A stretch of DNA of 64,000 bases from Verrucomicrobiota bacterium (GTDB lineage: Bacteria; Verrucomicrobiota; Verrucomicrobiia; Chthoniobacterales; UBA10450): NCBI GenBank assembly GCA_039649045.1, contig JBBWZL010000010.1, positions 17,811-81,810 on the forward strand, in the 5' to 3' direction. Below the pieces are notes generated by a model that was given only the letters and a program-made list of their open reading frames with translations, did no database searches and was not told the origin of the DNA. A program made the translations under genes and the position numbers. Below are positions 12,035 to 55,100 of this stretch, piece by piece. Every line of letters begins with the position of its first letter. Positions within the stretch are counted from its first letter, which is position 1.

Positions 12035-12155
12035 CGTTGAATCGTTAAAGCGTTGAAGCGTTGAAGCGTTAAAGCGTTGAAGCGTTGAAGCGGGCGAGGA
12101 ACCAACGCCGTTAATTGTAACGCTTTTAACGCTTCAACGCTTTAACGATTCAACG
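12035..12155. repeat. octamer word hairpin (CGTTGAAG/CGTTAAAG x7, loop, complement x4)
   Basis: The outer 28 nt of the two arms (12035-12062 and 12128-12155) are perfectly complementary. The element fills the ntrC-like stop / glnD start spacer to within 5 nt on each side. Confidence 0.9.
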
Positions 12156-12160
12156 CCCGG

Positions 12161-28671: not shown

Positions 28672-28684
28672 GGGGCGAAGAAGA

Positions 28685-28771
28685 GCTGAAACGCTGAAAA
28701 ACTGAAAAGCGAAAATATGCGAAAGTGCTCATTTCAGCGTTTCTGAATCTCAGTGTTTTAGCATTTTTTCA
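28685..28771. repeat. octamer word hairpin (GCTGAAAC/GCTGAAAA...; complement arm TTTCAGCG...)
   Basis: Left arm 28685-28716 (4 units), 14-nt spacer, right arm 28731-28771 in inverse orientation. Complementarity is imperfect. Lies directly after the stop at 28671. Confidence 0.8.
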
Positions 28772-32800: not shown

Positions 32801-33216
32801 AAACCCGTGGCCGGCGCGAAACCATTCAACTGATTTGGATTGAAGAGAACGTAGCCGCCCGAAGTGGGCGCGTTAAAGTTTCCCCCTGTTTCGAAGCCGA
32901 GGCGGTCCCCTGAACTTTCGAGCAATGAATACCAGGCGAGACGCGCGCTTCCGGACGAGTACCCCGGGAGCACATTCATCAGCCACTCGGGCGCCGCCTG
33001 CGCCGGCGAGTACTGGAAGTTCGCGGGCACGGGTCGCGCATCGGGCTGCGGGGCCAGCGCCTCATCAAACAGGAAATCGCCTTCCTCCGAATCATATGCC
33101 AGGGGCGACTGGAACATGCCCGAGAGCGCGCAGACGTATCCGGTCATGCTCACAAGGAGAATCGCCGCCACTGCGAGTCCCGCCACGGGTGCCCCACCAC
33201 GATTGTCTTTCTTCAT
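29887..33216 (-). CDS. PEP-CTERM-anchored protein with autotransporter-associated beta-strand (PATR) repeats
   Basis: Repeated ..GTLTLSGANTYSGGT..-type units. C-terminus IPEPSTWIVGALALAAIGFTQRKRFARRSR (PEP motif, TM helix, basic tail). Trimmed to ATG 33216 (MKKDNRGG..). Confidence 0.85.
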   Translation of the reverse strand: MKKDNRGGAPVAGLAVAAILLVSMTGYVCALSGMFQSPLAYDSEEGDFLFDEALAPQPDARPVPANFQYSPAQAAPEWLMNVLPGYSSGSARLAWYSLLESSGDRLGFETGGNFNAPTSGGYVLFNPNQLNGFAPATGFVSSKTSPAAVPSALSGSVDFAWNVNGGSSWSTTTNWTPTAPTGGPSAPGIYVTINTNPTANATITLFNTGNGGTAVKTVGRLDIGDSDGSNTFTISAGTAAGILNFDGDGANAQLNQLSTSNNNTISAPVTLTTSLDITNASANTLTLSSGGITAATAGTKTLSTSTGLVTISGVIGNGSGVISLVKSGAGTLTLSGANTYSGGTSLTGGTITLGISSVVTSGVLASGAVGTGTFNIGSAAGVVTLQTNAASSTPRTIENNISLDGDIIFATTGASGRIALNTLYSGTGAGASLLTTPNTIVLTRTNQFTVNNTVTVDLIGAVSGGFGITKLGAGTLNIGSTSTTGSNQDANANTYTGLTTVSAGTAVLTKTAGTDAIAGNVLVNGTGILAWNHSNQIKDTSDVTVNDTGVLNLDNSSETFDALNGSSGASILLGSGTLTVGANNENIFTYAGTSSGTGGLTKTGSGILILSGSNGYTGSTTIAAGELLLTPSGSLATASTIRLGDTAINSPSAMFTFGDTAGGETIANPTIVQASASGTEGTRTILGLATSGNTNTWTGNITLNTDLTVQSAAVGSTVANGPGILLFQGGTIDVLDNAFMMNSNLRGNNADTYSIQGTVRINEVLGSSLATGGSVVKDGSGTLILQGTSNTYTGTNPAALNPNGTTIRGGILGIFGDGSLGLAPTTATNNVFFNSSAFNTNNDSIGPTLRADAAAITLGATRNINIASGATATFDSNANTFGIAGIINGGGNLAKIGQGTLVLSGNNTYTGTTTVDVGTLLVNGNQSAATGAVTVNNSGTTLGGNGIIGGPVTVNSGANLAPGSSTGIITTGSVTLNSGSNFVLELNNTTPGTGYDQLVVNGSVTLNLGNIVVIAGGGLQVGDKFFVVVNDGTDPVLGAFAQGGTVTSGSDTFLINYLDDFGGGLAGNDISLTLQAIPEPSTWIVGALALAAIGFTQRKRFARRSRVIG

Positions 33217-33501
33217 GATTCTTGAAGGAATTGAGGTTCCCCACGAGAACACCCGTTCCGTGGCGAATTGTCGACAAGAAACTGCAATTTCCAGACAATT
33301 TTTTTCCGGACGGTGGTTTTGCTGGGGAACGCGTGCTGAAGGCCGAGCAGCTTAACCGCGGATTACCCGCCTTTGCCCGGGACGGGCTACGCCGTGGCGA
33401 GCGCAGATGACGCGGATGGAGGGAAGCTGTCCGCCGTACTCCTGGCGAAGGAGGATTAACCGATCACTCGCGAGCGCTTCGCGATCCTGCCCCTCAGCGT
33501 T

Positions 33502-36500
33502 TCAGCTTTTTAGCGTTTCAGTTTTTCTGTTGAAGCGCTTGCGCGACATGAACCCGATCGCCGCCAGCGCGAGAGCGCCGCCGATCCAGGTGCTCGGCTC
33601 GGGGATGGCGGTGAGAGTCAATGAGATATCATTGCCGGGCGTGAGGTCGCCGGTATCGACGTAGTTAATGGCGAAAACATAACCGTTGTCGGCGGTCACA
33701 GTGGCACCTTGCGCAAATGTGCCAGTGTTGGTTGTAAGGCTGCTGTTTTCGAGAACGAAAAACTTATCCAAAAGCTGAAGACTATTCGACGCCGTGACGA
33801 CGATGTTGGCACCGGTCAGAACAATCGCGCCGGAGGAGATGACTTGATCGTACCCAGTGCCGGCGGTAGTGCCATTAAGATCGACCGCGAAGTTCGATGC
33901 GGCGACGAGCGTCAACGCTCCGGTATGCAATATTGCGGTTGTACCGCTGCCATTGCCTGACGTGCCAGGCGATAGTTTTGCATCTGGGTTTATGGCAACC
34001 TGCCCGGTAATACCGCCGACACCTGTAGTTGTTCCCCCAGATAATATCGTCCCGGCGTTTGAAACAACGACCGAGCTCGTGCCCGTGCCAGACCCTGTCG
34101 TGTTAACCACGAGTAAGGTACCGCCGGTGACGCTGGTGCCGCCCGAATAAATATTTGCGCCACTGAGTGTCCAAGTTCCCGCTCCGGTCTTGTTGACTGT
34201 AGTGACGTTCGTTGAAGTGCCGTTGGCAATGACGTCGCTTTCGGAACCCGTGGTTGATCCGGTAAGAGTTAGCGTGGTCGTTCCGGAGGTACCAGCGCTA
34301 GTGACACCACCGCTGAGGGAAAATGTCGTCGCACCTGAGGCGTCGAGGCTGCCTGCGCCGCCAGTCGCGCCGGTGAGATTGATCACGCGATCGCTACTGC
34401 CCGCAGTGCTACCCGTATATTGCAGGGTTCCAGCCAGATCAATGATGCTGTTCGCCCCGACTGCCGGTTCGCCCAACGAATTAGGCGTGGTGCTGCCAGC
34501 GTTCTGAATCGAATTGATCGACAGAGTGCCAGCAGTAATAGTTGTTTTCCCAGTGTAGGTATTCGCGCCGGAAAGGACCATCGTGCCAGAGGACTGCTTG
34601 CTAATGCCGCTGGAACCTGAGCCATCTTGGATGATCGAGCCTATCGTCAGCTCAGTTGTCGTGGCGGTGGAGTCGCCGATGCTAAACGTGCGCGTTCCAT
34701 TCAAACTGACTGCCCCGGCGCCTGAAATTGTTGCGCTGTTCGGATTGTTAGTCTGGGAATACGTGACCGTGCCGCCGAGGTTCAGCGTGCCGCCGCCAAG
34801 GGTTATGTTGGGAGTTGTAGCGGAGCCACCCCCGAGCGTGATGTTCCCAACCGTTTGTGTAGTACCGTTTAGATCAAGCGTTCCGCCGCGGAGGATTAGG
34901 ACATTAGAGGTGGAGCCGAGGGTTCCAGCACCTGAAAGCCGCAGCGTGCCAGCGTCTGCAGACGTAGAGCCAATCGTGGTGCCAGCGGCATTACCGGAGT
35001 AGCTGTTGGCAGCTGTAAGAAGAACAGTACCGGTACTCAGGTCGATAAACCCCCCTGTCGTGCCGCTACCGTTGCTGATGATTCCGCCGAACGTCGTATC
35101 GCCCGTGCCGGCGATCGTCAAAGTTCGCGCGGTCGAGCTACTCGACAGGTTGAATGCCCCGAGCGTGAACACCTTACCCGCCCCAATGTTGTTCGTTATT
35201 TGATTCGAATTCGTCTGCGTCCACGTGCCGCCCAACGTCAGGTTTTGGGAACCGTTGATCGTCGCGTCTGTCGTTATCGCCACAGCGTTATTCAAAGTGT
35301 GACTCGCGCCGACGGCCTGCACCGCGATCCCCGTTCCGGTGTTGGTAAGCGTAAATGTGCCGGTGCCTAGCGGTCCATTGGTAATGGCGCCAGTTGAATC
35401 GGCACCGAGGGCAACCGTTCCGGAGTTGAGCGTAAAACCGCCACCAAATGTACTCGCTCCGGAAAGCGTCAAGGTTCCGGTGCCGGCGTAGGTGAGCTTG
35501 CTGGCAGTAGCGGTGCTGCCATTCGAAACTATTCCAGTAATAGTGACGTTGCCCGTGCCGTTAAATATACCGGTGCGGCTGGTGGCGGTGTTAGCGAGAG
35601 CGTAGCTTCCTAAGGAAAAAGTGTTCCCGGCGCCGTTAACCGTAGTCGTTTGTGTGCCACCGACAGTGTTAGTCATGAGGCCACCCAACGTCAATGTGCT
35701 GCCGACTCCATTAAGAGTGATCGTTCGACTACCAGCATTAGTTATTGCACCAGTTCCTAAATTCAGATCCTTTGTTCCCCCAAAGGTGAAATTGCCGCCT
35801 AATGTAATTGCGTTGTTGGTTGTGAGCGTAATCGCGCCCGCCGTTGTGTTGTCGATCGTTGTGCCAACGTTGATCGTGAACGCACCGGTACCTATCGCAG
35901 ACGTATTATTAATGTTTAATGTGCCGCCCGAAAGCGTCGTGCCGCCGCTGTAGGAGTTTCCTCCGGCAAGTGTTATCGTTCCAGCGCCTGGCAGATTCAA
36001 CGTGATACCGGAACCGGATATTCCGCCATTTATGATAAGTGTGCCACTAGCGCCCTGATTAAAAGTGGAAATGCCGCCACTAACCGGGGCAAGAATTATG
36101 GAAGCGTCGATTGTGTTTGTGCCAGTGCTGACGGAAGCGATGGCAGCCGAGTCTGAGTTAGTGAGTCCAGTAGTTGTTGTAGCTTGATTCGCAGTCAGCG
36201 TAAACGTCGCAGCGCCGGTGCTTGTGATATCGTATCCAGAAGAGGCCGCCGACGAGAAATAGAGAGCTGCGATGTTAACGGAGGCGCTTAAATTTGGCTG
36301 CGTTACAGCCGCACTTGTGAACCACCCTACGTCTCCGACACCCGGCGCCAGACCGCCGGTGCCGGCGGACCAATTCGCATTCGTGTTGAAGTCGGTTCCC
36401 GTGTTACCCCAATCCCTTCGGGCATCGACAGGTGTTGCCGAGGGCATCGGAATGGGCGTCGGCGATCTTTTTGACCCAGTGACTGTAGCCGACGGCGACG

Positions 36501-36717
36501 CGCTGGCGGAGGGTGAGGGCTTGGCGGTGGGTGTCGGCGAAGGCTTCGGCGCGCTCAGCGCGGACGAGGCGACGAGGAAAGTAGAAAGTAGGAAGTAGGA
36601 AGTAGGAAGTAGAACGGAGCGAACCAAGAGGGAAGAAAACGCCGAACGCCCAAGGCCCAACGTCCAACGTCCAATGACAAAAGCAGAGGTGAGAGATGTG
36701 GGAATTACGCGAATCAT
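33502..36717 (-). CDS. PEP-CTERM-anchored PATR-repeat protein
   Basis: PATR units throughout. C-terminus IPEPSTWIGGALALAAIGFMSRKRFNRKTETLKS. The N-terminal ~45 codons are encoded by heptamer word arrays and the start codon is uncertain. Confidence 0.8.
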   Translation of the reverse strand: MIRVIPTSLTSAFVIGRWTLGLGRSAFSSLLVRSVLLPTSYFLLSTFLVASSALSAPKPSPTPTAKPSPSASASPSATVTGSKRSPTPIPMPSATPVDARRDWGNTGTDFNTNANWSAGTGGLAPGVGDVGWFTSAAVTQPNLSASVNIAALYFSSAASSGYDITSTGAATFTLTANQATTTTGLTNSDSAAIASVSTGTNTIDASIILAPVSGGISTFNQGASGTLIINGGISGSGITLNLPGAGTITLAGGNSYSGGTTLSGGTLNINNTSAIGTGAFTINVGTTIDNTTAGAITLTTNNAITLGGNFTFGGTKDLNLGTGAITNAGSRTITLNGVGSTLTLGGLMTNTVGGTQTTTVNGAGNTFSLGSYALANTATSRTGIFNGTGNVTITGIVSNGSTATASKLTYAGTGTLTLSGASTFGGGFTLNSGTVALGADSTGAITNGPLGTGTFTLTNTGTGIAVQAVGASHTLNNAVAITTDATINGSQNLTLGGTWTQTNSNQITNNIGAGKVFTLGAFNLSSSSTARTLTIAGTGDTTFGGIISNGSGTTGGFIDLSTGTVLLTAANSYSGNAAGTTIGSTSADAGTLRLSGAGTLGSTSNVLILRGGTLDLNGTTQTVGNITLGGGSATTPNITLGGGTLNLGGTVTYSQTNNPNSATISGAGAVSLNGTRTFSIGDSTATTTELTIGSIIQDGSGSSGISKQSSGTMVLSGANTYTGKTTITAGTLSINSIQNAGSTTPNSLGEPAVGANSIIDLAGTLQYTGSTAGSSDRVINLTGATGGAGSLDASGATTFSLSGGVTSAGTSGTTTLTLTGSTTGSESDVIANGTSTNVTTVNKTGAGTWTLSGANIYSGGTSVTGGTLLVVNTTGSGTGTSSVVVSNAGTILSGGTTTGVGGITGQVAINPDAKLSPGTSGNGSGTTAILHTGALTLVAASNFAVDLNGTTAGTGYDQVISSGAIVLTGANIVVTASNSLQLLDKFFVLENSSLTTNTGTFAQGATVTADNGYVFAINYVDTGDLTPGNDISLTLTAIPEPSTWIGGALALAAIGFMSRKRFNRKTETLKS
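36581..36677. repeat. two heptamer word arrays (GTAGGAA x5 at 36581-36615; CCAACGT-type x5 at 36643-36677) inside the 5' end of 33502..36717
   Basis: Direct reading of the sequence. On the sense strand they encode ..IGRWTLGLGRSAF..VLLPTSYFLLSTF.. Confidence 0.85.
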
Positions 36718-41738: not shown

Positions 41739-43274
41739 CTACGTCTTTATTCGCAGCCGGCGTCGCGACGCGAACGCGATCGCGCCGAGCGCGAGTGCGC
41801 CGCCGATCCAGGTCGCTGGCTCGGGGATCGCAGTCGGAACGAGGAGCAGATCATTGTCGCCGTACACGAGCGTGTAATTCGCGGGCATGTTATCGACGGA
41901 ACTGAACTGTCCGCTCCGGCCGAGATACGTGGCGAGGGTGTAGACCGTGAACCCATCCGGCGTCCCGACGAGGTCGAGATGGCTCGAGCCGGAGATGTTG
42001 AGGGTTCCCATGATCGCGAGAGTGTCGCTGATGTTGCCGATAATATTAGCCAGGTAAGTGGAGGTGGATTCGCCGCCGTTGAAGGTAACATTCTGGTTCA
42101 GGGTGAGTGTGCCGATGTGCAGCGTGCCTGTACCGGTCGCGGTGCCGCCGGTGATAATGCCATTTCCGACGGCGACCGAGCCGCCAATGGTGCCGGTGCC
42201 GCCGAGGGTGCCGGAATTAACCACGGACACGCTTCCGGTGGCGCCGGAGTTATTGCCGTTGATCAGGCCGGTGGCGCCGTTCAAAACTGTCGTGGCGCCG
42301 GTGTAGGTGTTCGTGCCGCTAAGAGTCACCACGCCGCTGGCGATGCCGACCCGCAGGGAATTGCCGGTGGTGCCGTTGCTGAGGACGCCGGTCACGTTGA
42401 CGACGCCGCCGTCGAATTGGATGAGCTTGTCGAATCCGCCGGCGCTGATGTTTCCGGAAAGGGTGAAGGCCCGGGTCGTGGAGTCGTTTCGAACCGAAAG
42501 ATAGTTCACGTTTCCAATGATGATCGGCGCCGAAACGGTGTCGCCAAAAGTGGCTACGGCTTGATTCAAGAGGCCGGTGCCCCCGCCGTTGTCAAAAGTG
42601 AGCGTGCTGCCGCCGCTGGCCGCGAGGGTATACGAGTTGCCGCGGAGTGGGTCGCCGATAAAGAGCTGGCCGACCGTGCGGCTCGTGTCCAGCGTAACGG
42701 TGACCGCGCCGGAAAAAAGAGGGTGGCTGTCCAGGTGGGCGATCGAGCCTGCGCCATCCGGAATAGCGAAGCCGGCCCAGTTTCCGAAGTTGCCCCAGTT
42801 TCCCGAGAAGTCGCTACTCCAAAAACCAATGGCAGCCGCCGGGGCGTCTGGAAGCAGCGAGGAGCTTGAGCCTGGGCTGCTGAGGAACGCGGGCGAACCA
42901 AACGCGCTCGGCCCATAAGGAGCGCTCGAGTCAGTTACAGCGGGCGCTGTCTGCTCCGTCATCCAGGCGGACGTGATCTCAGGCTGGGCGGGCGTCAGCG
43001 TCCAAGTGCGAGAGGGTCGCGAGAAGAGGAGACCATTTACGAGATGGCCCATCGAGAGCTGCGCTCGTGCGTTAGTTTCCAGCGGAGCGGGCGGGGCCAC
43101 GTCGGCGGTGTGGGCGTCGTTCAACGGCAGAGCGGAGAACCAAGAGCCCGGATAGGCAAAGTCGAGGTCGAAGGTATTGCTCCAGGTATTGTCGGCGGCG
43201 AGAATACCCCCGGCACAGGCGACGAGGAGCAGGCAACGAATGGGACGCCAAATGCCCTGTGCTGCGGGTTTCAT
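41739..43274 (-). CDS. PEP-CTERM-anchored PATR-repeat protein (paralog 2)
   Basis: The first 31 aa are identical to 38965..40518 and the N-terminal ~85-90 aa are about 80% identical overall. C-terminus IPEPATWIGGALALGAIAFASRRRLRIKT. Confidence 0.8.
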   Translation of the reverse strand: MKPAAQGIWRPIRCLLLVACAGGILAADNTWSNTFDLDFAYPGSWFSALPLNDAHTADVAPPAPLETNARAQLSMGHLVNGLLFSRPSRTWTLTPAQPEITSAWMTEQTAPAVTDSSAPYGPSAFGSPAFLSSPGSSSSLLPDAPAAAIGFWSSDFSGNWGNFGNWAGFAIPDGAGSIAHLDSHPLFSGAVTVTLDTSRTVGQLFIGDPLRGNSYTLAASGGSTLTFDNGGGTGLLNQAVATFGDTVSAPIIIGNVNYLSVRNDSTTRAFTLSGNISAGGFDKLIQFDGGVVNVTGVLSNGTTGNSLRVGIASGVVTLSGTNTYTGATTVLNGATGLINGNNSGATGSVSVVNSGTLGGTGTIGGSVAVGNGIITGGTATGTGTLHIGTLTLNQNVTFNGGESTSTYLANIIGNISDTLAIMGTLNISGSSHLDLVGTPDGFTVYTLATYLGRSGQFSSVDNMPANYTLVYGDNDLLLVPTAIPEPATWIGGALALGAIAFASRRRLRIKT

Positions 43275-43399
43275 CGTGAGCCGATTGAAATCAATTTGCC
43301 CACGCAGAGTCAATAGGAATCATGGGGAAAGTAGAAATTAGGAAGGAGGAGTTTCAGAGGTCCCGCCTTCGCAAAAGCTACGGCGTGGCGAGCACGGTC

Positions 43400-43435: not shown

Positions 43436-45250
43436 TCAGCGGATGTTTTCGACAAGCGCGGCCTCCTCCGGCAAAAGCCGCTTCCGGTCGACCTCGCGCA
43501 TCTCCGTGGCTGCATCCTCGCTCCGCCCGTTCGCGGCCAGGACCGCGGCATGCACCGCCAGGGCAGACGGCGTCAACGCGCCGCGGGCGACCTGAATACC
43601 CGAATACGCATCCATTGCGTCGCTCAATTTTCCCAGGCGAAACCGCGCCAGAGCGAGCAGAGTCCGATGCGGCAGACTGGACGGCTCTCGCTGGACGAGC
43701 TGAGCAGCAAGTTGCTCAAGCGTTATCAGTTCTTGGTTATTTGTTACTCGTTCTGACCTCTGACTTCCGTCCTCCGACCTCTGCGATTGCTGCGCATTCA
43801 TGAGCAGCAATCGCGTATACGCTTCGTCGTTTTGCACCGCCGGGTCGTTAGGCCAGATCGCCAGCATCTCCGCGAGGACGGCATGGATTTTCTTGGTCTC
43901 GCCCGTGACCTGCGCGAGCCGCAGCCGGCCCTGGTGCGCCGCGCGCAGCCGGGGCGACTCGGCCACGGCCTCGTCGTAGGCAGCGCGCGCCACATCGGTC
44001 ACGCCATTTTTTTCCGCATAACCTGCGAGCGTAATCAGCTTGCCCGGATCGCCCCGGGCTGCCTCCAGCGCGCGCTGCCAATTATTTTCCGACGCGGCTT
44101 TTTCGCCGAGCTGTGCGTTGCAGCGCGCGAGATACATTTTCTGCACGAACGGATCGAGCGGGTAACGATCGCGATCGAGCAATTCCTTGATCTCTTTCCA
44201 GCGGCCGAGACCGCCGAGCGCATCGACGTATTGCAGGAAAAGCTCGCGCGATTGCAGCGCTCTCTCGATCGGGATGGCATCGAGCACGCGCTGGAATTCA
44301 CTCTTGCCATTCAACCACGTCGCGAGCGCCGCCGCTTCATCCGGTGTTCCATCTTTCCATTGCGCGACCGCTTTCGCGATCAGCTCGGCGCGCGTTTCAG
44401 GTTGCTGGCGCATCTTCAAATCGACCGCGAGCAATTTCTGCGGCGCGCGGGCGAGGGGATGCGCCTCGAGCTTTTCCGACAAATCGAGCGGCGCGATCGG
44501 GAAAGTTTCCGGGATTTTTTCCGATGAAAGCGCTGTCTGCGCCAGGACCGTGAGCGCATCGACCCCGGCGGCATCGCCCGTTTCCGATATTTTCTTCAAC
44601 CAGGACCAGGCTTCGCTGCGCCAGTTTTCGTTGCCCGCGGAAATCGCGATGTCCAGCAGCGCGGCCTGTAGTTTTCCCCGGCCGCTCGCCCGCGCATCGC
44701 CGAAAATTTTTTGCAACGCATCGTGCGCTTCGATAGCGGCGCCCTGCCGGGCGGAGAGTTGCGCCGAGAGCAAATAGTCCAACGGCATAACGGGGCCGTT
44801 CGTTCCACTGAGGAGCGCGCGGATCGCGCGGGTCGCGCGGGCATCGTCGCCCGCGAGTAGCGCGATGGTCGCCTCATCGGTGAGATCAACGCGGGTGAGA
44901 CGGGTGCGTTGCTCTAGCCGGTCCCAGAATTCCAGCGCCTGCGCCTGCCGGGTTCGCGAAAGAAAACGGGCGATGGCCCGAATCGCTTCCGGTTCGTCCG
45001 GCCACAATTGATAAGCGCTCGCCACTTCCTTGCGGGCTTCGTTCCAATCCTCTTTCTCCATCAGCGCAAAGGCCGTGCGAGCGTGGCGTCGCGCCTGCCA
45101 GGCCTTGATACCATGCAGGACAGGCCGCCCGCCGAAGATTCCGCCGAGCCCGAGAACGAGGACGAGGAGGAGCGCGACGATAATGCGTTTGCGCCTGCGA
45201 GTTCGAAGCCGCAGCTCCTCCTCGGTCAACATGAAGTCGTCGGCGCGCAT
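43436..45250 (-). CDS. membrane-anchored TPR-like repeat protein (possible exosortase-system accessory)
   Basis: N-terminal TM helix (IIVALLLVLVLGLGGIFGG), then a helical-repeat composition. Last gene of the exosortase operon. Contains an in-frame heptamer array (43753-43787) encoding SQRSEDGSQRSE. Confidence 0.65.
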   Translation of the reverse strand: MRADDFMLTEEELRLRTRRRKRIIVALLLVLVLGLGGIFGGRPVLHGIKAWQARRHARTAFALMEKEDWNEARKEVASAYQLWPDEPEAIRAIARFLSRTRQAQALEFWDRLEQRTRLTRVDLTDEATIALLAGDDARATRAIRALLSGTNGPVMPLDYLLSAQLSARQGAAIEAHDALQKIFGDARASGRGKLQAALLDIAISAGNENWRSEAWSWLKKISETGDAAGVDALTVLAQTALSSEKIPETFPIAPLDLSEKLEAHPLARAPQKLLAVDLKMRQQPETRAELIAKAVAQWKDGTPDEAAALATWLNGKSEFQRVLDAIPIERALQSRELFLQYVDALGGLGRWKEIKELLDRDRYPLDPFVQKMYLARCNAQLGEKAASENNWQRALEAARGDPGKLITLAGYAEKNGVTDVARAAYDEAVAESPRLRAAHQGRLRLAQVTGETKKIHAVLAEMLAIWPNDPAVQNDEAYTRLLLMNAQQSQRSEDGSQRSERVTNNQELITLEQLAAQLVQREPSSLPHRTLLALARFRLGKLSDAMDAYSGIQVARGALTPSALAVHAAVLAANGRSEDAATEMREVDRKRLLPEEAALVENIR

Positions 45251-45681
45251 CAGAAGTCAGAAGTCAGAGGTCGGAACTGCGGAATGATTCGTTCTTCCGT
45301 ATCATTCCGCCGAGCATTCGTCCGATCTCAGCGCCACGCGAAGTAAGTTGCTTATGTTGATCGTGCGAGATGTAACCGCACGCCAGGGCAAAATCGAGGG
45401 ATGAATCCGTTTCGCTGTTTTCAACGTCACAATCCGTCAGCTTGCTTAGAAAATGCGCTTCATAAGGTCGTTTGGCCCACGCTTCTCGGAGATTCAAACA
45501 GACAGATCTCGAGGATCGCCTGATTTGACTGGTCAAAGCGTATTTTTCTTCTGACGGAAAAGTTTTTGTGGCGTCAAAAATCTCCATCGCGAGCTGATAC
45601 GCGGATTTGTAAACCTCCAGATCCTTAGCCGTTTCAATCTTCACGCTTTCTGACCTCCGCTTTCTGACCTCCGACCTCCGG
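45250..45681 (-). mobile_element. IVS-like cassette: four-helix-bundle gene bracketed by inverted heptamer arms (45250-45277 and 45647-45681)
   Basis: The arms are 21/28 complementary. On the sense (minus-strand) RNA, 3 of the mismatches become G:U pairs. The cassette lies exactly between the exosortase and TPR ORFs. Calling it a mobile element is inference. Confidence 0.35.
45264..45644 (-). CDS. four-helix-bundle protein (23S rRNA intervening-sequence protein / Avd family, TIGR02436-like)
   Basis: KDLEVYKSAYQLAMEIFDATKTFPSEEKYALTSQIRRSSRSVCLNLREAW..FL..CDVENSET matches the family pattern. Trimmed to GTG 45644, which overlaps the exosortase stop by 11 nt. Its TGA stop lies inside the heptamer arm. 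Confidence 0.75.
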   Translation of the reverse strand: MKIETAKDLEVYKSAYQLAMEIFDATKTFPSEEKYALTSQIRRSSRSVCLNLREAWAKRPYEAHFLSKLTDCDVENSETDSSLDFALACGYISHDQHKQLTSRGAEIGRMLGGMIRKNESFRSSDL

Positions 45682-47376
45682 TTCAACCGTTTCCCTGAGG
45701 AGTTCTGCGAATTTGTCTTCGGCCATTTGATCGTCCATCGGTTGCGAGCTGACAAAAATCACTTCCAGAACTTGCTGCCCCAGATTCCGAATTCCATTTC
45801 GCACCGTCCGGAAACGCGCCTTCATGGACCAATCGGGCTGCACGCCTTCGGCGAGCTGTAGATCTGGCCGCGGCTCATCGGCGTGCGTCTTGTCTTCCTG
45901 CAAACAAAAAAACGTGTGCGCGACAGCGTTCCCGTTGCCCTGCCGAAAGGTGATGTGCCGCGCCACGATCGGAATATTCTCGCGCGCGAGATAAGTTTTT
46001 GCGCCGCGATCGGCGAGTTGCTGCCAGCCGATGCTCGGCAGGCAAATGTCCGGCCGGTGGGCCCGCGCCCGCAGCACGCTCGCGCTGCCTGGATTCCAGC
46101 GAAAGAAAAACAGATAATTGGTCGTCGAAAAACCGGGTGCGGCGTCTGCAATCGTTCTCCAAGTCACTTCGCGGCCCAAATCGAACCGCAATGTTTGCCG
46201 GACCGATTCATCGATTTTGATTTCGCGAAATCCCGGCGCCTTTTCCGGCGGACGAACACTCCAATTGCCGCGCGCAGTGAGATTCTTCTCATGCGCCCGA
46301 TACCACTCATGGGCTCCAGCTTCGACCGCAACGAGCCAGAGAAGGCAAAGGATGAAGGATGAAGGATGAAGGAGGAAGTGGGGCCGGAGGTCGGAGGTCG
46401 GCTCTGACTTCTGACTTCTGCCCTCTGCCCTCCGACCTCCGTTTCCGCCTTCCGCCTTCCGCCTTCCGCCTTTCTCCAACAACGCGGCGAGCAAGAGCGA
46501 GCCGCAGAAAACAGCCGCAACAATCGTGTATCCGGCAAAATCGTGCCATCGATCCACGGCCGAGATGCTTTGGGTCGCGGCGATCCAGACGAGGAAAAAG
46601 GCGCGCGCAAAGTTGGCGATGATGGCGATGGCCAGCGCGCCCAGAACAAGAAGAATTCGGCGCGTAACCGACAGCCGCTTCAGTTCGCCGAAGAGCAAGC
46701 CAATCATGATCGAAGTCTGCAATGAACGCACGCCGCTGCACGCTTCGTTCACGCCGACCAGGCCAGTGCTGACGCGGATGAGATTGCCTTCGAGTTGCGC
46801 GGGAATGCCGAAAAGGGTGATCGTCTCACTCGCCACCGCCGCGACGATCCGCATAAGGCCCTGGACGATTGGTTGCTCAATCGGAGAAACCCACGGCACC
46901 GCGACGAAAAAAAACGCGACGGGAAAAGCGAAATGCCGCACCCACGGTTTGCCGCCCGCCAACCAAAGCACGAGCAAAGTCATCGTCACCACCACGCCTG
47001 TGTGCACCCAACCCAGCGGCCGCCAATCCGGGTTCGCGATTTCAAACAACCGGATCGGCAACAGGAGCAGCAGCGCCCCAATTGCAATCGCGATCGCAAT
47101 TCCGCGTTTCCTCCTTCCTCCTTCCTCCTTCCTACTTTCCCCCCGATCGTCCCAGCGCAACCAAAACAAAAACAGCGCGAAGAACGGAACGAACCATCCG
47201 TAGCTGTATTGCTCGTTGTCCGACCACTCGCCGCTCAGTTGCCGGCAGAGAACAAACCAGAGCGCGAGCAATAACAGGCCCGACAGCAGAATCCTCGAAA
47301 GTTTGCTTCGGCGCACCGACTCTGGTTTCAACCGAATCGAAATGGCGTCGTTCACGGCGGGGCGAAGATATTCCAC
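45634..47376 (-). CDS. exosortase (PEP-CTERM type) fused to a C-terminal EpsI-like domain
   Basis: Multi-TM N-terminal half with NEACSGVRSL (catalytic Cys), ANFARA (Asn/Arg) and WHDFAGY (His) motifs. The C-terminal ~230 aa are EpsI-like. Three word-array segments are in frame (47110-47137, 46349-46474, 45647-45681). Confidence 0.85.
   Translation of the reverse strand: MEYLRPAVNDAISIRLKPESVRRSKLSRILLSGLLLLALWFVLCRQLSGEWSDNEQYSYGWFVPFFALFLFWLRWDDRGESRKEEGGRRKRGIAIAIAIGALLLLLPIRLFEIANPDWRPLGWVHTGVVVTMTLLVLWLAGGKPWVRHFAFPVAFFFVAVPWVSPIEQPIVQGLMRIVAAVASETITLFGIPAQLEGNLIRVSTGLVGVNEACSGVRSLQTSIMIGLLFGELKRLSVTRRILLVLGALAIAIIANFARAFFLVWIAATQSISAVDRWHDFAGYTIVAAVFCGSLLLAALLEKGGRRKAEGGNGGRRAEGRSQKSEPTSDLRPHFLLHPSSFILCLLWLVAVEAGAHEWYRAHEKNLTARGNWSVRPPEKAPGFREIKIDESVRQTLRFDLGREVTWRTIADAAPGFSTTNYLFFFRWNPGSASVLRARAHRPDICLPSIGWQQLADRGAKTYLARENIPIVARHITFRQGNGNAVAHTFFCLQEDKTHADEPRPDLQLAEGVQPDWSMKARFRTVRNGIRNLGQQVLEVIFVSSQPMDDQMAEDKFAELLRETVEPEVGGQKAEVRKRED
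46349..46474. repeat. 18 phase-locked heptamers (126 bp) forming an imperfect hairpin inside the exosortase ORF
   Basis: Units in order: AGGATGA x3, AGGAGGA, AGTGGGG, CCGGAGG, TCGGAGG, TCGGCTC, TGACTTC x2, TGCCCTC x2, CGACCTC, CGTTTCC, GCCTTCC x3, GCCTTTC. The core CGGAGGTCGGAGG and CCTCCGACCTCCG are perfectly complementary. Confidence 0.9.
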
Positions 47377-48496: not shown

Positions 48497-49270
48497 ATGT
48501 CATCCGGAGTTGCGGCGGGTTCGTCCGAAAGATTTCAGCAGATCCTCGGCATCCGCTTCTTCGATGGCACTCCGGCGGGGGCGGTCGCTTATCTCAAGCG
48601 CGTTGGCGGATACGTGGTTGTGCCCGCGGCGCCAGCGCTGGTGAAACTGCGTTACGATGAAGCTTTTCGCGCGGCGCTTGTGCAATCCGATCTCGCAATT
48701 GCCGACAGCGGATTGATGGTCTTACTCTGGAAACTTTTTGAACGCCGGCGCATTTCCCGCATCTCCGGGCTCGCTTACTTGAAGCGCCTTCTGGAGCTGC
48801 GGGAAATCCACGAGGCTGGAAAAGCCTTTTGGATTCTTCCCGCGGCATCCGCCGCCGAGAGCGCAAAGAAATGGCTCCGCGATGCGGGATTCGGCGTGTC
48901 GGACGAAGACTTTTACATCGCGCCTTTTTACGGAGCGGAGGTGAGCGACGAAGTTCTGGCTGCGGCCATCAATGCCCGGCGGCCCACCGACGTCATCATT
49001 GCCATTGGCGGCGGGCCGCAGGAAAAACTGGGATTATTCCTCCGAGACCATCTCGGATATCGCCCGGCCATCCATTGCATCGGGGCCGCGCTCGGTTTTC
49101 TGACGGGCGACCAGATCGCGATCCCGGATTGGGCCGACCGGCTTTACCTCGGCTGGCTCTTTCGCCTTTTCGCGCAACCGCGCGTGTTCATCCCGCGGCT
49201 CTGGAGTGCGCACGAGCTCCCATGGCTTATTTTCAAGTATCGTGAAAAACTGCCCCCCCTGAAAAACTGA
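48497..49270 (+). CDS. WecG/TagA/CpsF-family (GT26) glycosyltransferase
   Basis: ILGIRFFDGT..AVAYL...GGYVVVPAAPALV.. and ..VIIAIGGGPQEKL patterns. ATG 48497 preferred over TTG 48476. The stop codon lies inside the octamer array. Confidence 0.65.
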   Translation: MSSGVAAGSSERFQQILGIRFFDGTPAGAVAYLKRVGGYVVVPAAPALVKLRYDEAFRAALVQSDLAIADSGLMVLLWKLFERRRISRISGLAYLKRLLELREIHEAGKAFWILPAASAAESAKKWLRDAGFGVSDEDFYIAPFYGAEVSDEVLAAAINARRPTDVIIAIGGGPQEKLGLFLRDHLGYRPAIHCIGAALGFLTGDQIAIPDWADRLYLGWLFRLFAQPRVFIPRLWSAHELPWLIFKYREKLPPLKN

Positions 49271-49692
49271 AAAACTGAAATGCTGAAAGACTAAAAAATG
49301 CGCCTCCCAGAAGCGTTTCGAGAACGAACGAAAAAATATGCTTCAGCGATCATTCGGTTGTATGCGCAATTGCCGAGGACCCGGAAGGAAGTGGAAGTGT
49401 TGGGACATCAACTTCTTCGGTCTGGTACCTCAGTCGCAGCGCTCACCCGCGAAGCATCACGAGCTCGATCTGATGCTGAGTTCTGTTCCAAGATCGACGG
49501 AGCATTGCAGGAAGCGGATGAATCTCAGCTATGGATTGAACTTCTGCGGGAGGACTGCGGCATCGACGGCGCGCCTATCGAACACCTGCATCGGGAAACA
49601 AGCGAACTAATTGCGATCCTGGTAACAATGGCAAACAAGACAAAGCGCACTCTTAGATAATTTCAGCTTTTCAGTATTTTCGCGTTTCAGCC
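49259..49692 (+). mobile_element. IVS-like cassette: four-helix-bundle gene bracketed by inverted octamer arms (49259-49297 and 49661-49692)
   Basis: Left arm (CTGAAAAA x2, CTGAAATG, CTGAAAGA, CTAAAAAA). Right arm (TTTCAGCT, TTTCAGTA, TTTTCGCG, TTTCAGCC). 24/30 complementary. Sits exactly between the GT26 and carbamoyltransferase ORFs. Mobility is inference. Confidence 0.35.
49298..49660 (+). CDS. four-helix-bundle protein (23S rRNA intervening-sequence protein / Avd family)
   Basis: FRERTKKYASAIIRLYAQLP....VLGHQLLRSGTSVAALTREASRARSDAEFCSKI..ALQEADESQLWIELL matches the second common subtype of this family. Confidence 0.75.
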   Translation: MRLPEAFRERTKKYASAIIRLYAQLPRTRKEVEVLGHQLLRSGTSVAALTREASRARSDAEFCSKIDGALQEADESQLWIELLREDCGIDGAPIEHLHRETSELIAILVTMANKTKRTLR

Positions 49693-49699
49693 TTTGCCC

Positions 49700-51490
49700 A
49701 TGCTCATCCTCGGCCTCAATGCTTATCACGGCGATTCCGCGGCGTGTTTAATCAAGGATGGCCGGCTTGTCGCCGCGGCGGAGGAGGAGCGGTTTCGGCG
49801 CATCAAACATTGGGCCGGCCTGCCCACTCAGGCGATCGATTATTGCCTGCGCGAAGGCGGCGTCACGCTGCAGGACGTCGATCACATCGCGATCAATCGG
49901 AAACCTGGCGTGAACAACTGGCGGCGGCTTGCCTTTGTCCTGCGGCATCGGCCCGATCCGCGGTTGATGATGCAGAAAGTCCGCAACATTCGCAGCGCTT
50001 CATCGGTGCAGGAAGCTCTCGAGCGCGCCTACAAGGTGTCGTTAGGCGCCCAGGTCCATCACATCGAACATCATCTCGCGCATCTCGCCTCCGCCTTTCT
50101 CGTCTCGCGCTTCGACGAAGCGGCCTGCATTTCGATCGATGGCTTTGGCGACTTTGCCAGCACGGCGATGGGGAGCGGCCAGGGGAACCGGATCGCGATC
50201 GAGGAGCGCGTTTATTTTCCGCACTCGTTAGGCATCTTTTATTCGGCCCTGACCCAGTTCATCGGCTTCCCGCACTTTGGCGACGAATACAAAGTGATGG
50301 GCCTGGCGCCGCTGGGCGAACCGAAATATCTCCAGGAAATGCGCCAGCTCGTTCGGATCCAGCCGGACGGCACCTTCAAGTTGAATCTCAAATATTTCCG
50401 GCATCACACCGATAACGTTTCCTACACTTGGAACGACTGCGCCCCGGAAGTCGGCACGCTTTACACCGGGAAATTGAGCGAGCTGCTCGGATCCGAACGC
50501 GGCGAAGGCGATCCTCTCGAACAACGACACAAGGACCTGGCTCGCTCGGCCCAGGCGATGTATGAGAAAGCGTTTTTCGGTCTGCTGAACGCGCTTCATA
50601 AAAAACATCCTTCGCCGAACCTCGCGCTCGCGGGCGGGTGCGCGATGAACTCGGTCGCGAATGGCAAAGTCTATTTGCGCACCCCGTTCCGAAAAATGTA
50701 TCTGCCCGCTGCCGCGGGCGACGCCGGCGGCGCCATCGGCGCAGCGGCGGTTGTGCAAGCACAACTCGCGGAGGTCAGACGTCAGAAGTCAGAGGTCAGC
50801 CAGAGGCGCATCGCCTTGGACGATGCTTATAGCGGTCCGCAGTTCTCCGACGAGGAAATCCATCAACTGCTGCGAGATCGCGGCGTTGTCTCATCTGACC
50901 TCCGATCTCCGACCTCCGACCTCTCGGTCGAACACATGACCGATAGCAACGAACTTTGTCGCCGCACCGCAGCCGCCATCGCAGATGGCAAAGTCGTCGG
51001 TTGGTTTCAAGGACGGATGGAGTGGGGGCCTCGCGCTCTCGGGAACCGCTCGATCCTGTGCGATCCGCGGCGTTGGGACATGAAGGAAATTCTGAATCTC
51101 AAGATCAAGCGCCGCGAATCGTTCCGTCCGTTCGCGCCTTCGATTTTGCGCGAAGCTGTCGCCGAATGGTTCGAGCAGGACGATGACGTGCCCTTCATGA
51201 TGGAAGTCTTCCAAGTTCGCCCGATAAAACGCGCTTTCATTCCGGCGGTCACGCACGTCGATGGCTCCGGCCGGCTCCAAACCGTGCATCGCGAAACCAA
51301 TCCGCTTTATCACCATCTGATCTCCGACTTCTATTCGCTGACCTCGGTCCCGATGGTGTTGAACACCTCCTTCAACGAAAACGAACCGGTCGTTTGCCGC
51401 CCCGAAGAAGCGCTCGATTGTTTTCTGCGCACGAAAATGGATCTGCTCGTCATGGGCAATTTCCTGATCACCCGTTCGAACGCTCTCTAA
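49700..51490 (+). CDS. carbamoyltransferase (NodU/CmcH family)
   Basis: MLILGLNAYHGDSAACL.., EERFRRIKH, GWFQGRMEWGPRALGNRSIL.DPR, VTHVDGSGRLQTV. ATG 49700 preferred over TTG 49694. Two in-frame heptamer arrays at 50768-50802 and 50891-50925. Confidence 0.85.
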   Translation: MLILGLNAYHGDSAACLIKDGRLVAAAEEERFRRIKHWAGLPTQAIDYCLREGGVTLQDVDHIAINRKPGVNNWRRLAFVLRHRPDPRLMMQKVRNIRSASSVQEALERAYKVSLGAQVHHIEHHLAHLASAFLVSRFDEAACISIDGFGDFASTAMGSGQGNRIAIEERVYFPHSLGIFYSALTQFIGFPHFGDEYKVMGLAPLGEPKYLQEMRQLVRIQPDGTFKLNLKYFRHHTDNVSYTWNDCAPEVGTLYTGKLSELLGSERGEGDPLEQRHKDLARSAQAMYEKAFFGLLNALHKKHPSPNLALAGGCAMNSVANGKVYLRTPFRKMYLPAAAGDAGGAIGAAAVVQAQLAEVRRQKSEVSQRRIALDDAYSGPQFSDEEIHQLLRDRGVVSSDLRSPTSDLSVEHMTDSNELCRRTAAAIADGKVVGWFQGRMEWGPRALGNRSILCDPRRWDMKEILNLKIKRRESFRPFAPSILREAVAEWFEQDDDVPFMMEVFQVRPIKRAFIPAVTHVDGSGRLQTVHRETNPLYHHLISDFYSLTSVPMVLNTSFNENEPVVCRPEEALDCFLRTKMDLLVMGNFLITRSNAL

Positions 51491-52158: not shown

Positions 52159-55100
52159 TGTGCGGTATCGCAGCCATTTTTGGATACGGCGTTGATGCTC
52201 CACCGGTCGATCGTGATGAGCTGATCGCCATTCGCGATCGGATGATTCGCCGCGGGCCCGATGGCGAAGGCCTCTGGATCTCGGAGGATCGCCGCGTAGG
52301 CCTGGCCCATCGACGCCTCACGATCGTAGATCTCACGGACGCGGGCCTGCAACCGATGTGGACCAGCGATCGCGCGCTCTGCGTTTCGTTCAACGGCGAA
52401 ATCTACAACTATCCTGCGCTACGCGCGCAATTATCCGAGCGTGGTTATCAGTTCAGATCGAATTGCGACACCGAAGTATTACTCCATCTCTATGCCGAGA
52501 AGGGGCCTGAGATGGTCCACGATCTTCGCGGGATGTATGCCTTCGCCATCTGGGACGTAAAGCAGCGGAGCCTGTTTTGCGCGCGCGACCCCTTCGGGAT
52601 CAAGCCGCTTTACTATGCGGACGACGTCCGAACGATTCGCATCGCCTCACAGGTCACGGCTCTCCGGGCAGGAGGGCACATCGATACGACGCCTGAGCCT
52701 GCCGGGCACGTTGGATTTTTTCTCTGGGGCTCGGTGCCGGATCCGTTCACCCTTTATCGCGGGATCAGCGCACTGCCCGCAGGCCACACGCTCACAATCC
52801 GCGAAGGGGGCACACCCGAGATTCGTTCGTATTGTTTTATCCCGGATATCTTGCGTGAAGCAGAATTAGAGATCGGAGATCAGAAGTCAGAAGTCGGTGG
52901 GGAACAACGCGAAATTCTTCACGCCGCGTTGCGCGACAGCGCCGAGCATCATCTTATGGCCGATGTGCCGGTGGGCATTTTCCTTTCCGCCGGACTCGAT
53001 TCATCCACGCTCACCGCGCTGATCAGCGAACGGCATGAGGACGTCCGCACGGTCACACTCGGCTTCAACGAATACCGCGGCGGCGAACAGGACGAGACGC
53101 TGCTGGCGGAAGTGGTCGCGCGCACTTGCAAAACCAATCACCAAACCATCTGGGTCACGCGCCGTGATTTTGAAGGAGACGCCGCCCGGCTCTTCGAGGC
53201 AATGGACCGGCCGACGATCGATGGCGTGAACACCTATTTCGTCAGCCTCGCGACCAGGCGGGCCGGACTGAAAGTGGCGATCTCCGGCCTGGGCGGCGAC
53301 GAATTATTCGGCGGTTACCCCAGTTTCCAGGATGTTCCTCGCATCGCCAACCGACTCCGCCATTTCCGCCGATTCGGAAAACTTGCGCGCGGCTTTCGCA
53401 TCGTAACGCAGGATGTGATCAAACATTTCGCTTCGCCGAAGTACGCCGGAATTTTCGAATACGGCTCGAGTTATCCCGGCGCCTATTTGTTGCGCCGCAG
53501 TCTTTTCATGCCGTGGGAACTCCCCGAATTTCTCGACCCGGAATTGGTGCGCGAAGGCTGGGCGCGCTTGAACACTTTCGGCGAGTTGGCGGGGATTTGC
53601 GATTCGCTCGATTCCGAGCGGCTCAAAGTCTCGGCGCTCGAACTTTGCTGGTATATGCGCCACCAGCTTTTGCGCGATTCCGATTGGGCCGGCATGGCCC
53701 ATTCGCTCGAAATCCGCGTGCCGCTCGTCGATGTGAAGCTGCTGCGGGAAATTGCGCCCTTGCTCGCTTCGCCGCGCCCGCCTGGAAAACGCGACATGGC
53801 GTTGTCTCCCCGCACGCCATTGCCCGAAGCGGTCCTCTCTCGTCCAAAGACCGGTTTCACCATGCCGGTGCGCGACTGGCTTTTGCAATCGTTCGATCCC
53901 CTGTCGGCCGGCGAACGTGGTCTGCGCGGTTGGGCGCGTTACGTCCATGGTGAATTCGTGCAGGACTCCGGCGCGGCCTCTACGGTCTTGCGCCGCTCGC
54001 GCGCCACGCGCGCTCGTGCCACTGGCGCGCGCAAAATTTCACGGATCCTTGTTTATCGCATCGGCCAGCTCGGCGACACCATCGTGGCGTTGCCCGCCAT
54101 GTGGGCGATAAAGGAAAATTTTCCTGACGCGGAGCTGACGCTGCTTTGCGATCAACATCCGCACACCAACTACATTCTCGCTTCCGGCCTGCTGCGAGAC
54201 GCCGGAATATTTCACGATTTCCTGGCGTATCCGGTGGAGAAACTTGGCACCAGCTCTGCGCGCCGCGCGACTGAGCTCGTGAAAAAATTGCGCGAACGGA
54301 ATTTTGATACCCTCGTCTATCTGGCCCCATCGGCTCGAGGGCCGGGGCGCGTCCGGCGCGATCGCTGGTTTTTCCGCGCGGCCGGCATCCGCACTTTTAT
54401 TGGGATGACCGGTTTCCCGCGGTTTCAGAAAAGGACCAGCGGCGCCGCGCTCGCCAGCGCCCCGCGCGAATTCGAATTATTGCTCCTGCGTCTGCGTGAA
54501 TCCGGGTTGCGTGTCTCTTTGCAAAATCCACGCTTCGACCTCGGGCTCGGCCAGCGCGAAGAAACAGACATAGCGCGCTGGCTCGAGACGCAACCTCAAC
54601 CCGACGGCCATCGTCGCTGGATTGCGGTAGGCCCGGGATCCAAAATGCCGGCGAAGCAATGGCCCCTCGAACGTTACGACCAGGTCGTGCGCGATCTGAT
54701 TGCCGGCTTCGACATCTGGCCCGTCGTTTTCGGCGGGGAAGAGGACCGCGAGATTGGCGATGGATTGATTGAGCGCTGGGGTCGCGGCTATAACGCCGCC
54801 GGCGCGCTCGGTGTTCGCGCCGCTGGCGTCGCCTTAAAACGTTGCGAGCTTTACCTCGGCAACGACACCGGCACGATGCACCTCGCTGCCGCCGCCGGCA
54901 TCCGGTGCGTTGCCGTCTTCTCGTCACGCGAGCGTCCCGGTCTGTGGTATCCTGCCGGAAGTGACAACCGCGTTTTCCGTTCCGAGATCGACTGCGAAGG
55001 ATGCGGCCTGAAGGTGTGCATCACTCGAAACATCGAATGCCTTCGCCGGATTGATTCACAATCGGTCACGGCTGCGTGCACCGAGCTGCTGGCTGGTTCG

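Follow-up and report, generated by a model that had tools for sequence, protein, structure and literature searches.

A hairpin-bounded four-helix-bundle gene cassette in an operon spacer, a probable counterpart of the intervening sequences of 23S rRNA

Introduction

The DNA analyzed here, 64,000 nucleotides of a contig from a Verrucomicrobiota bacterium (JBBWZL010000010.1, positions 17,811 to 81,810; hereafter the window), raises a simple question: why does a small gene for a four-helix-bundle (4HB) protein, of the family also carried by the intervening sequences (IVSs) of 23S rRNA, sit in the spacer of a protein-coding operon, between two arrays of tandem heptamers that are complementary to each other? 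An initial annotation, made from the letters of the window, proposed an IVS-like cassette of a selfish or regulatory kind. Our answer, which we hold to be probable with some reserve, is that the unit is a promoter-less gene cassette bounded by a hairpin, the operon-borne counterpart of the 23S rRNA IVSs that contain an open reading frame (ORF), inserted long ago and kept vertically since. The cassette consists of a purine-rich heptamer arm that also supplies the ribosome-binding site, the 4HB gene, and a complementary pyrimidine-rich arm. We call it cassette 1, and refer to a second such unit in the window as cassette 2.

A 4HB gene interlocked with its operon neighbors

As initially described, the small ORF lies between two minus-strand genes of the same operon, the order being exosortase, small ORF, tetratricopeptide-repeat (TPR) protein and PEP-CTERM protein (41739-43313). 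In the direction of transcription the relevant features are:

45634..47376, minus strand: exosortase gene, upstream in the operon, with an EpsH core and an EpsI-like C-terminal domain
45645..45689 (array proper 45647-45681), minus strand: 5' arm of cassette 1, CCGGAGG-TCGGAGG-TCAGAAA-GCGGAGG-TCAGAAA on the sense strand, purine-rich
45264..45644, minus strand: 4HB gene of cassette 1, 126 amino acids plus stop, GTG start, PF05635 / TIGR02436
45243..45284 (array proper 45250-45277), minus strand: 3' arm of cassette 1, GTTCCGA-CCTCTGA-CTTCTGA-CTTCTGA on the sense strand
43436..45250, minus strand: TPR protein gene, downstream in the operon, with a weak PrsT-like match and its start codon within the 3' arm

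The encoded protein scores above the curated cutoffs over the full domain for both PF05635, whose Pfam name is "23S rRNA-intervening sequence protein" (E=8.7e-29, 100.3 bits against 33.8, residues 7-112 of 126), and TIGR02436, the "four helix bundle protein" family (94.6 bits against 24). In itself, cassette 1 just adds another case to a family already annotated, and its protein has thousands of close homologues. The nearest solved structures are 2RLD (E 1e-8) and 2GSC, which is XCC0516 (E 9e-8), with five deposited chains each, and by this similarity the protein is predicted to form a homopentamer of four-helix bundles. PADLOC gave no match to known anti-phage defence models for either 4HB protein of the window.

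Both ends of the gene are shared with its neighbors. The 5' arm codes for the last ~15 codons of the exosortase, much as first estimated, whereas the exosortase stop (45634-45636), which had been placed within the arm, lies just beyond it and 11 nt within the 4HB ORF, so that the two ORFs overlap by 11 nt. The same arm contains the ribosome-binding motif GGAGG, 9 nt upstream of the 4HB GTG. At the other end, the 4HB TGA (45264-45266) was correctly assigned to the 3' arm, which carries TGA in all three frames, and the TPR ATG (45248-45250), 13 nt past that TGA, does overlap the first unit of the arm by one base. A scan of 44900-46000 detected no sigma-70-type promoter-like site; it did detect four terminator-like sites, all of them outside cassette 1 and its arms. 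The cassette shows neither a transcription unit of its own nor an intrinsic terminator. An Rfam scan of the window returned two tRNAs only, and the cassette is flanked by exosortase and TPR coding sequence, so it is not in a 23S rRNA gene.

Pairing of the arms

Tandem Repeats Finder (TRF) detects both arrays of cassette 1, just where they had been listed from the letters. The local alignment of the arms spans 27 positions, with 21 Watson-Crick pairs, 3 G:U, 2 A.C and 1 other. The initial counts of Watson-Crick and G:U pairs therefore stand, but the accompanying estimate of a 13-bp and an 8-bp helix was too short: for the ~45-nt arms as sense RNA, RNAduplex gives -43.7 kcal/mol and an 18-bp core. 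When the minus strand is folded from 45230 to 45700, the minimum-free-energy and the centroid structure both close the ORF through the arms, as expected of the proposed stem. Compared with dinucleotide shuffles the duplex stands out (z -3.2), although 8 of 1000 shuffles reach the same energy. By itself the pairing is only moderately significant, because one arm is purine-rich and the other pyrimidine-rich and because such arrays are common in the genome; matches resembling TCAGAAGTCAGARG, for example, number 16 where 0.45 are expected.

The bracket across 4HB genes and phyla

The bracket can also be compared across the family. For this purpose 4HB genes were drawn from a genome scan, a TPR-seeded metagenome scan, plasmids and exact-protein look-ups, and detected by a custom hidden Markov model (HMM); tblastn with the cassette 1 protein misses the second 4HB gene of the window as well as the types B and C defined below, all of which are recovered by Pfam and the custom HMM. 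Cassettes and shifted controls could not be told apart by the RNAduplex energies of their 110-nt flanks (p=0.05), and local complementarity was scored instead: the bracket score is the highest local complementarity found when the 110 nt upstream of a gene are compared with the ~110 nt downstream of it, and the control has the same geometry shifted by 1.5-2.5 kb.

By this measure 35 of the 36 non-redundant 4HB genes exceed the 95th percentile of the shifted controls (median 33.5 versus 14, p~1e-19). A score of at least 20 is reached by 97% of them (35/36), compared with 9.5% (29/306) of the other genes of the same loci. High scorers among those other genes include transposases of the REP-associated tyrosine transposase (RAYT) type with their repetitive extragenic palindromes (REPs), which serve as a positive control, and genes that happen to lie between two neighboring hairpins; one further high scorer turned out to be an additional 4HB gene at a contig edge. 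The true RAYT/REP pairs belong to the related loci L078-L084. The Chthoniobacterales-like genomes studied here thus also carry RAYT-type (IS200-like) genes with flanking REP hairpins, at L078 (1120-1533), L079, L080 and L084. Terminal inverted repeats whose stem encloses the ORF, the arrangement that characterizes ORF-containing IVSs, are thus present in cassette 1 and likewise in 35 of 36 relatives, and it is these comparative data that make the bracket of cassette 1 compelling.

The bracket is also polar. Flanking arrays are inverted in 38 of 42 4HB genes, the remaining four being two long direct arrays on cyanobacterial plasmids and two weak cases, and the sense-strand 5' arm is purine-rich in 29 of 33 cassettes. 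Such brackets come from at least six phyla, with examples in Verrucomicrobiota, Chloroflexota, Ignavibacteria, Gemmatimonadota, Cyanobacteria and Gammaproteobacteria (Xanthomonadales). Cassettes are co-oriented with their neighbors in 47 of 56 cases, a figure not evidently above the general bacterial background and hence not counted here as evidence.

All 24 plasmid matches in PLSDB are cyanobacterial. On two of these plasmids, Anabaena sp. 90 pANA02 (L097) and a Pseudanabaena galeata plasmid (L098), the 4HB gene has cas6 and cas4 of a type I-D CRISPR-Cas operon as its two neighbors (~1500-1870); its arrays are inverted in one plasmid and long and direct, (AAAGCTA)16 / (AAAGCCA)10, in the other.

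Arm words and protein subfamilies

When the 4HB proteins are clustered at 55% identity, each subfamily has its own arm word:

Type A, which includes cassette 1: GGAGGTC / AGAGGTC / ACAGAGG
Type B: GAAAGTA / GGAAGTA
Type C: GACAACT
Type D: GGTTATT
Type of cassette 2: the 8-mer GCTGAAAA, found again in L017
Chloroflexota group: CCAGTAN
Xanthomonadales XCC0516 type: GGGAATC

Types A and B retain their words at differing genomic sites, and a single genome may carry two types with two words, as cassettes 1 and 2 do. A change of word in one arm is mirrored in its partner: in L025, GGAGGGC is paired with GCCCTCC. The arm word thus tracks the 4HB subfamily and not the site of insertion, and arms and gene make up one unit. 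Together with the flank scores this shows a coherent polar module of arm, gene and arm that resides in operon spacers and relies on read-through transcription.

Insertion and retention at operon junctions

The claim that the cassette had been inserted was borne out by an empty-site comparison of 44 distinct orthologous exosortase-TPR junctions from metagenomes, with TPR identities of 42-75%. About 4 of the 44 have a spacer of 0-20 nt free of hairpins and arrays; about 24 contain an array hairpin alone (in some cases nested hairpins, in one case a hairpin that holds a REP element); 14 contain a 4HB cassette of type A, B, B-variant or C, i.e., of at least four subfamilies; and one holds a toxin-antitoxin pair between non-matching arrays. 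The spacer between the WecG-family glycosyltransferase and carbamoyltransferase genes is polymorphic as well, with the 8-mer-armed cassette 2 in the window and type B cassettes with GAAAGTA arms in L033, L036 and L048. This polymorphism at two operon spacers means that cassettes have repeatedly entered there or replaced each other, and shows that the unit reached the exosortase-TPR junction by insertion or replacement.

Individual junctions illustrate the process. L002 has a cassette with arms at the same junction as the window (TPR protein 88.6% and 4HB protein 90.5% identical). In L012 the 4HB gene at this junction has been killed by a frameshifting internal deletion of 169 nt, with both arms kept. 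The toxin-antitoxin pair, a ribbon-helix-helix (RHH) antitoxin and PIN toxin, is in L057 (2690-3500), between GTTATCA-type and non-matching CTTCTGA-type arrays, and looks as if it had landed within older hairpin remnants. The REP-like palindrome (TGTAGGGCAAGC...) is within the nested array hairpin of L076.

Since its arrival the cassette has been inherited vertically under strong purifying selection on the 4HB protein: pairwise ratios of nonsynonymous to synonymous substitution (dN/dS) among orthologues are 0.05-0.1 (0.08 against L002), at synonymous sites that are often saturated. The label "selfish" is therefore probably wrong, because the gene is vertically retained at low dN/dS and several Xanthomonadales genera share its equivalent, with conserved arms, as a fixed part of their accBC operon.

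The accB-accC cassette of Xanthomonadales

This equivalent deserves a closer look. In Xanthomonas citri, X. campestris, Stenotrophomonas, Dyella and Dokdonella, accB and accC are separated by an orthologue of XCC0516. The arms of these orthologues read GGGAATC-GGGAGTG-GAGAATG-GGGAATC plus the inverse, with the 3' arm adjoining the accC ATG, and their sequence is conserved throughout the four genera. The whole cassette again folds so that it closes through its arms (z -4.9), and the array itself encodes the first ~10 residues of the proteins (MENGESAKRP..., L099-L108). Gene callers dispute the start of the XCC0516-type protein, giving 109, 126 or 129 amino acids.

The arm word of these cassettes is already known as a genomic repeat. 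Rehm et al. mapped GGGAATC to 186 sites in X. campestris, 70 of which are two close arrays in convergent (inverted) orientation; the sites are mostly between co-oriented ORFs and are transcribed (PMC4692102). That paper names no partner for the repeat and lacks mention of an XCC0516-type gene. Further published heptamer families are GGGGA(C/T)T in Nostoc (PMC4692102) and the TAACTGA repeats described by MacGregor in Beggiatoaceae, Cyanobacteria and Bacteroidetes, for which the mechanism is unexplained (PMC4679880). Neither of these papers reports an associated protein or mentions PF05635 (PMC4692102, PMC4679880), and published work on heptamer repeats gives no mechanism and no identified binding partner (PMC4679880, PMC4692102, bioRxiv 10.1101/2022.06.06.494920). 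A full-text literature search of incomplete coverage, where silence is absence of evidence only, found no paper tying PF05635/TIGR02436 genes to flanking heptamer arrays. The link between 4HB genes and heptamers thus appears to be new to the literature, and the general rule that 4HB genes are wrapped in arms whose word matches genome-wide repeat families seems to be new too.

Possible mechanism and alternative explanations

How might such a cassette work? In the operon transcript the arms would pair over the 18-bp core plus flanking pairs, ~25-30 bp in total, enclosing the ORF and burying the ribosome-binding site of the 4HB gene together with the start codon of the TPR gene. A stem of this length is compatible with RNase III, for which the duplex is a putative substrate; by analogy with the IVSs, cleavage would free the cassette RNA and separate the message of the exosortase from that of the TPR protein. 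Another possibility is that ribosomes melt the stem as they read through the 5' arm to the end of the exosortase ORF, leading to coupled translation of the 4HB gene and then of the TPR gene. The pentameric protein, for its part, would most likely act on arrays of its own word, meaning its own arms and the putative targets among gene-less genomic copies.

Several observations weigh against reading the unit as an IVS-like cassette of the transcript. Cleavage of its stem by RNase III is suggested purely by analogy, and the number of shuffles that match the cassette 1 duplex was given above. TRF finds ~25 arrays of 7-8-nt units in the 64 kb, and since arrays are so abundant and also occur in-frame within ORFs, some pairings will arise from density alone. 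AU-rich gene-less hairpins at the exosortase-TPR junctions fold no better than shuffles. Arm mismatches comprise 31 G:U and 32 A.C; with no excess of G:U, nothing marks the sense RNA as the selected level, and it could be as DNA that the complementarity is kept or made. Of the six cyanobacterial plasmid copies, two are flanked by arrays that are direct, not inverted. The cassette 1 protein has a near-neutral charge by residue count. Finally, 4HB copies at differing sites are only 69-76% identical, showing no sign of recent transposition, and no mobility enzyme has been identified for the cassettes: transposases, integrases and reverse transcriptases were all lacking among the neighbors of the cassettes examined. 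The missing G:U excess, the ordinary folding of AU-rich solo hairpins and the two direct-array copies together make a role of the arrays in DNA, or in protein binding, possible.

One such explanation draws on the partnership between RAYTs and REPINs, the hairpin-forming REP pairs. Here the 4HB gene would be a vertically inherited master locus with its cognate repeat on either side. Its protein would maintain, spread or bind the many gene-less array hairpins that use this word elsewhere in the genome, and the bracket would be a sign of that bond instead of a device for RNA processing. The correspondence of word and subfamily speaks for this, as does the conserved accB-accC gene of Xanthomonas with arms of exactly the word found at 186 sites; the commonest array word of the window is also the arm word of cassette 1, a solo hairpin with GCTGAAAA matches cassette 2, inheritance is long and vertical at low dN/dS, the Nostoc literature seeks a heptamer-binding partner, and our flank test recovers true RAYT/REP pairs by the same signature. 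On the other hand, the 4HB protein is without a catalytic domain, the words CGTTGAAG, AACGCCC and AAGGATG have no matching 4HB gene in the visible 64 kb, and the hairpins, whose words differ, do not stem from the copying of a single element. We consider this explanation possible though doubtful. The match of word and subfamily and the Xanthomonas case do make some trans-acting relationship between the 4HB protein and dispersed arrays a serious possibility, albeit one we judge rather unlikely. Carried furthest, and offered with low confidence, the idea would be that TIGR02436 pentamers are the missing trans-acting partners of the genomic heptamer arrays (short tandemly repeated repetitive sequences, STRRs; GGGAATC; TAACTGA), that each subfamily recognizes its own 7-8-nt word, that the gene is a self-marked master copy, and that 23S rRNA IVSs are one landing site. 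Each subfamily might perhaps also spread or exert regulation by way of the arrays it recognizes.

The inverted arrays could instead be recombination or hairpin sites on single-stranded DNA or cruciforms, comparable with integron attC sites or the ends of IS200/IS605, for an enzyme encoded elsewhere that would bring promoter-less cassettes into operon junctions, swap them and remove them. Different cassettes have indeed been exchanged repeatedly at two junctions, hairpins are nested and a REP element lies inside one of them, the units are promoter-less and mostly co-oriented with their neighbors (the 47 of 56), and the arms lack a G:U bias. Yet there is no integrase or transposase near any cassette examined, the arms differ in unit number and are not mirror images, and recent near-identical copies at different sites are missing, all of which renders this explanation improbable. 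A mundane origin, with slippage-prone heptamer repeats filling spacers so that any small spacer gene acquires arrays on both sides, would fit the very high density of arrays, their occurrence after a tRNA gene, within ORFs and in direct orientation at 40592/40708, and the heavy tail of mismatched-pair scores that the shared vocabulary produces. Such coincidence is largely refuted by the flank scores (97% versus 9.5% in the same loci) and by arms that stay conserved over Xanthomonadales genera even though synonymous sites are saturated; the predominance of inverted arrays (38/42), the purine polarity (29/33) and the subfamily-specific words across phyla speak against it as well, and we regard it as very unlikely.

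Lastly, the gene might be an orphan Avd, left behind by a diversity-generating retroelement (DGR). Avd acts on the RNA of its own locus together with a reverse transcriptase. It is a homologous pentameric four-helix bundle (PMC10053308), and the cassette 1 protein has a bAvd-like match to PF22296 (E=6e-12). However, the protein scores only 39.8 with the NCBIfam Avd equivalog NF033474, where the cutoff is 80; the 20 window ORFs scanned include no reverse transcriptase (template and variable repeats were not specifically searched); the neighbors are an exosortase and a TPR gene; and a close-alignment scan of viral contigs found no relatives of the cassette 1 subfamily. This origin is barely plausible.

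Relation to known systems

The IVS-like cassette that we favor resembles the 23S rRNA IVSs of Coxiella burnetii and Leptospira in its PF05635 gene, its terminal inverted repeats enclosing the ORF and its length of ~0.43 kb (PMC4990558). In Coxiella the likeness extends to the arms: the 28-bp stem, in which RNase III cuts, contains tandem GACAGAT heptamers upstream of the ORF, in numbers that vary between strains (PMC4990558). The initial comparison with stem-ORF-stem IVSs was accordingly apt, the Coxiella stem being likewise built of heptamers, and the IVS-like reading is right on both architecture and insertion. The differences lie in the host, which is helix 25 or 45 of 23S rRNA there and a protein-coding operon here; in the ORF, which in Coxiella is decaying and probably untranslated whereas that of the cassette is under strong purifying selection; and in excision by RNase III, which has been demonstrated for IVSs and is here supposed by likeness. 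IVS-type elements would then not be specific to rRNA, but form a general class of hairpin-bounded cassettes within operons.

With the published heptamer families (GGGAATC, GGGGA(C/T)T, TAACTGA and the STRRs of heterocystous cyanobacteria) the arrays share tandem 7-nt units that lie mostly in spacers of co-oriented genes, frequent convergent pairs, transcription, and unit numbers that vary among close relatives, and the Xanthomonas word is identical to that in the arms of its 4HB gene; what sets the arrays described here apart from those families is their tie to one particular family of genes. REPIN-RAYT systems also combine a vertical gene flanked by inverted cognate repeats with many gene-less hairpins and one repeat type per gene lineage. 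However, RAYTs are HUH/Y1 transposases while the 4HB protein is without a known catalytic fold, and REPINs copy one sequence whereas array hairpins consist of short tandem units in variable number; cassette 1 has no HUH/Y1 transposase with cognate REPs, and the layout alone is analogous. With the Avd of DGRs the shared feature is the homologous pentameric bundle, set against an equivalog score below the cutoff and the lack of a reverse transcriptase among the scanned ORFs; a DGR is not what we find here.

If a genome-wide partnership of the REPIN/RAYT kind did exist, it would be built on a non-enzymatic, Avd-like protein, and it would join two puzzles, the role of the crystallized but uncharacterized 'S23p'/IVS family and the origin and role of genomic heptamer repeats. 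Xanthomonas is well suited to testing the link: the 2GSC structure, a map of 186 arrays and public RNA-seq are at hand, and the essential accBC operon contains just one conserved cassette.

A second cassette and other arrays in the window

Cassette 2 is positioned between genes for a WecG-family glycosyltransferase and a carbamoyltransferase, and its subfamily differs from that of cassette 1. It and the further array hairpins of the window are:

49259..49298, plus strand: 5' arm of cassette 2, five (CTGAAAAA)-type 8-mers; the WecG-family glycosyltransferase gene stops within it
49298..49660, plus strand: 4HB gene of cassette 2, 120 amino acids, PF05635 E=4.6e-14 (53 bits), TIGR02436 70.8 bits
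49661..49695, plus strand: 3' arm of cassette 2, TTTCAGC-type, complementary to 49259-49298; ends 5 nt before the carbamoyltransferase ATG
12035..12156, minus strand: solo (gene-less) array hairpin, (CGTTGAAG)x7 versus its inverse, 25-nt loop, between glnD-like and ntrC-like genes
28680..28770, plus strand: solo array hairpin, GCTGAAAA/TTTCAGC word, the word of the cassette 2 arms; z -2.9
50774..50923, plus strand: inverted TCAGAAG/GACCTCC arrays, in-frame, 97 nt apart, in the carbamoyltransferase interdomain linker; z -3.9

The arm duplex of cassette 2 (-27.5 kcal/mol) is equalled by none of 1000 shuffles. We considered the idea that arms put stops in all frames on one fixed side, and dropped it, as the polarity differs between cassettes 1 and 2. 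The solo hairpin at 12035-12156 folds at -68.9 kcal/mol (z -9.4). That solo hairpins are deleted cassettes is an idea drawn only from the shared words and the deletion intermediate L012; a 4HB ORF remnant was sought in the loop of the hairpin at 28680, and the alignment was unconvincing.

Heptamer arrays, in part as hairpins, are also found in-frame in conserved genes, where they are translated as linkers. In the carbamoyltransferase the Pfam domains cover residues 5-351 (N) and 426-594 (C), and the array hairpin falls in the linker between them. In-frame arrays of the exosortase are translated as linkers, at 46344-46472 (interdomain linker) and 47108-47141 (loop). The array 46344-46377 is 85% complementary to 47108-47141, 730 nt apart on either side of the EpsH core. 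The 5' arm of cassette 1 has an alternative pairing partner 702 nt away in the array 46384-46399, whose complementarity to it is perfect. Further in-frame arrays occur in a variable loop of the TPR protein (43752-43783) and in an asparagine-synthase-like gene (52880-52895). Rickettsia palindromic elements (RPEs), which are unique-sequence palindromes of ~100-150 bp, are likewise hairpin repeats lying in-frame in genes. They differ in not being tandem heptamers, and we know of no link between RPEs and a 4HB gene.

Outside these genes, a TCAGAAG/TCAGAGG array (4918-4949) begins 3 nt past the 3' end of a tRNA gene (4843-4915), and the arrays at 40592/40708, examined as a candidate hairpin, are in direct orientation and form none. 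A ~145-nt unit rich in GAGCGAGCGG motifs is present in two tandem copies at 26897-27110, adjoining a TAGAAAG/GAAAGTA array; a 107-codon ORF (26877-27200) contains the unit or lies next to it. Coding repeats of 12, 24, 42 and 84 nt, at 20115-20394 and 24501-24699, are inside the giant ORFs 16958-21172 and 21224-25489, which were not part of the Pfam scans. Matches to the passenger-associated-transport-repeat (PATR) belong to other large genes, at 29887-33252 and 33502-36717.

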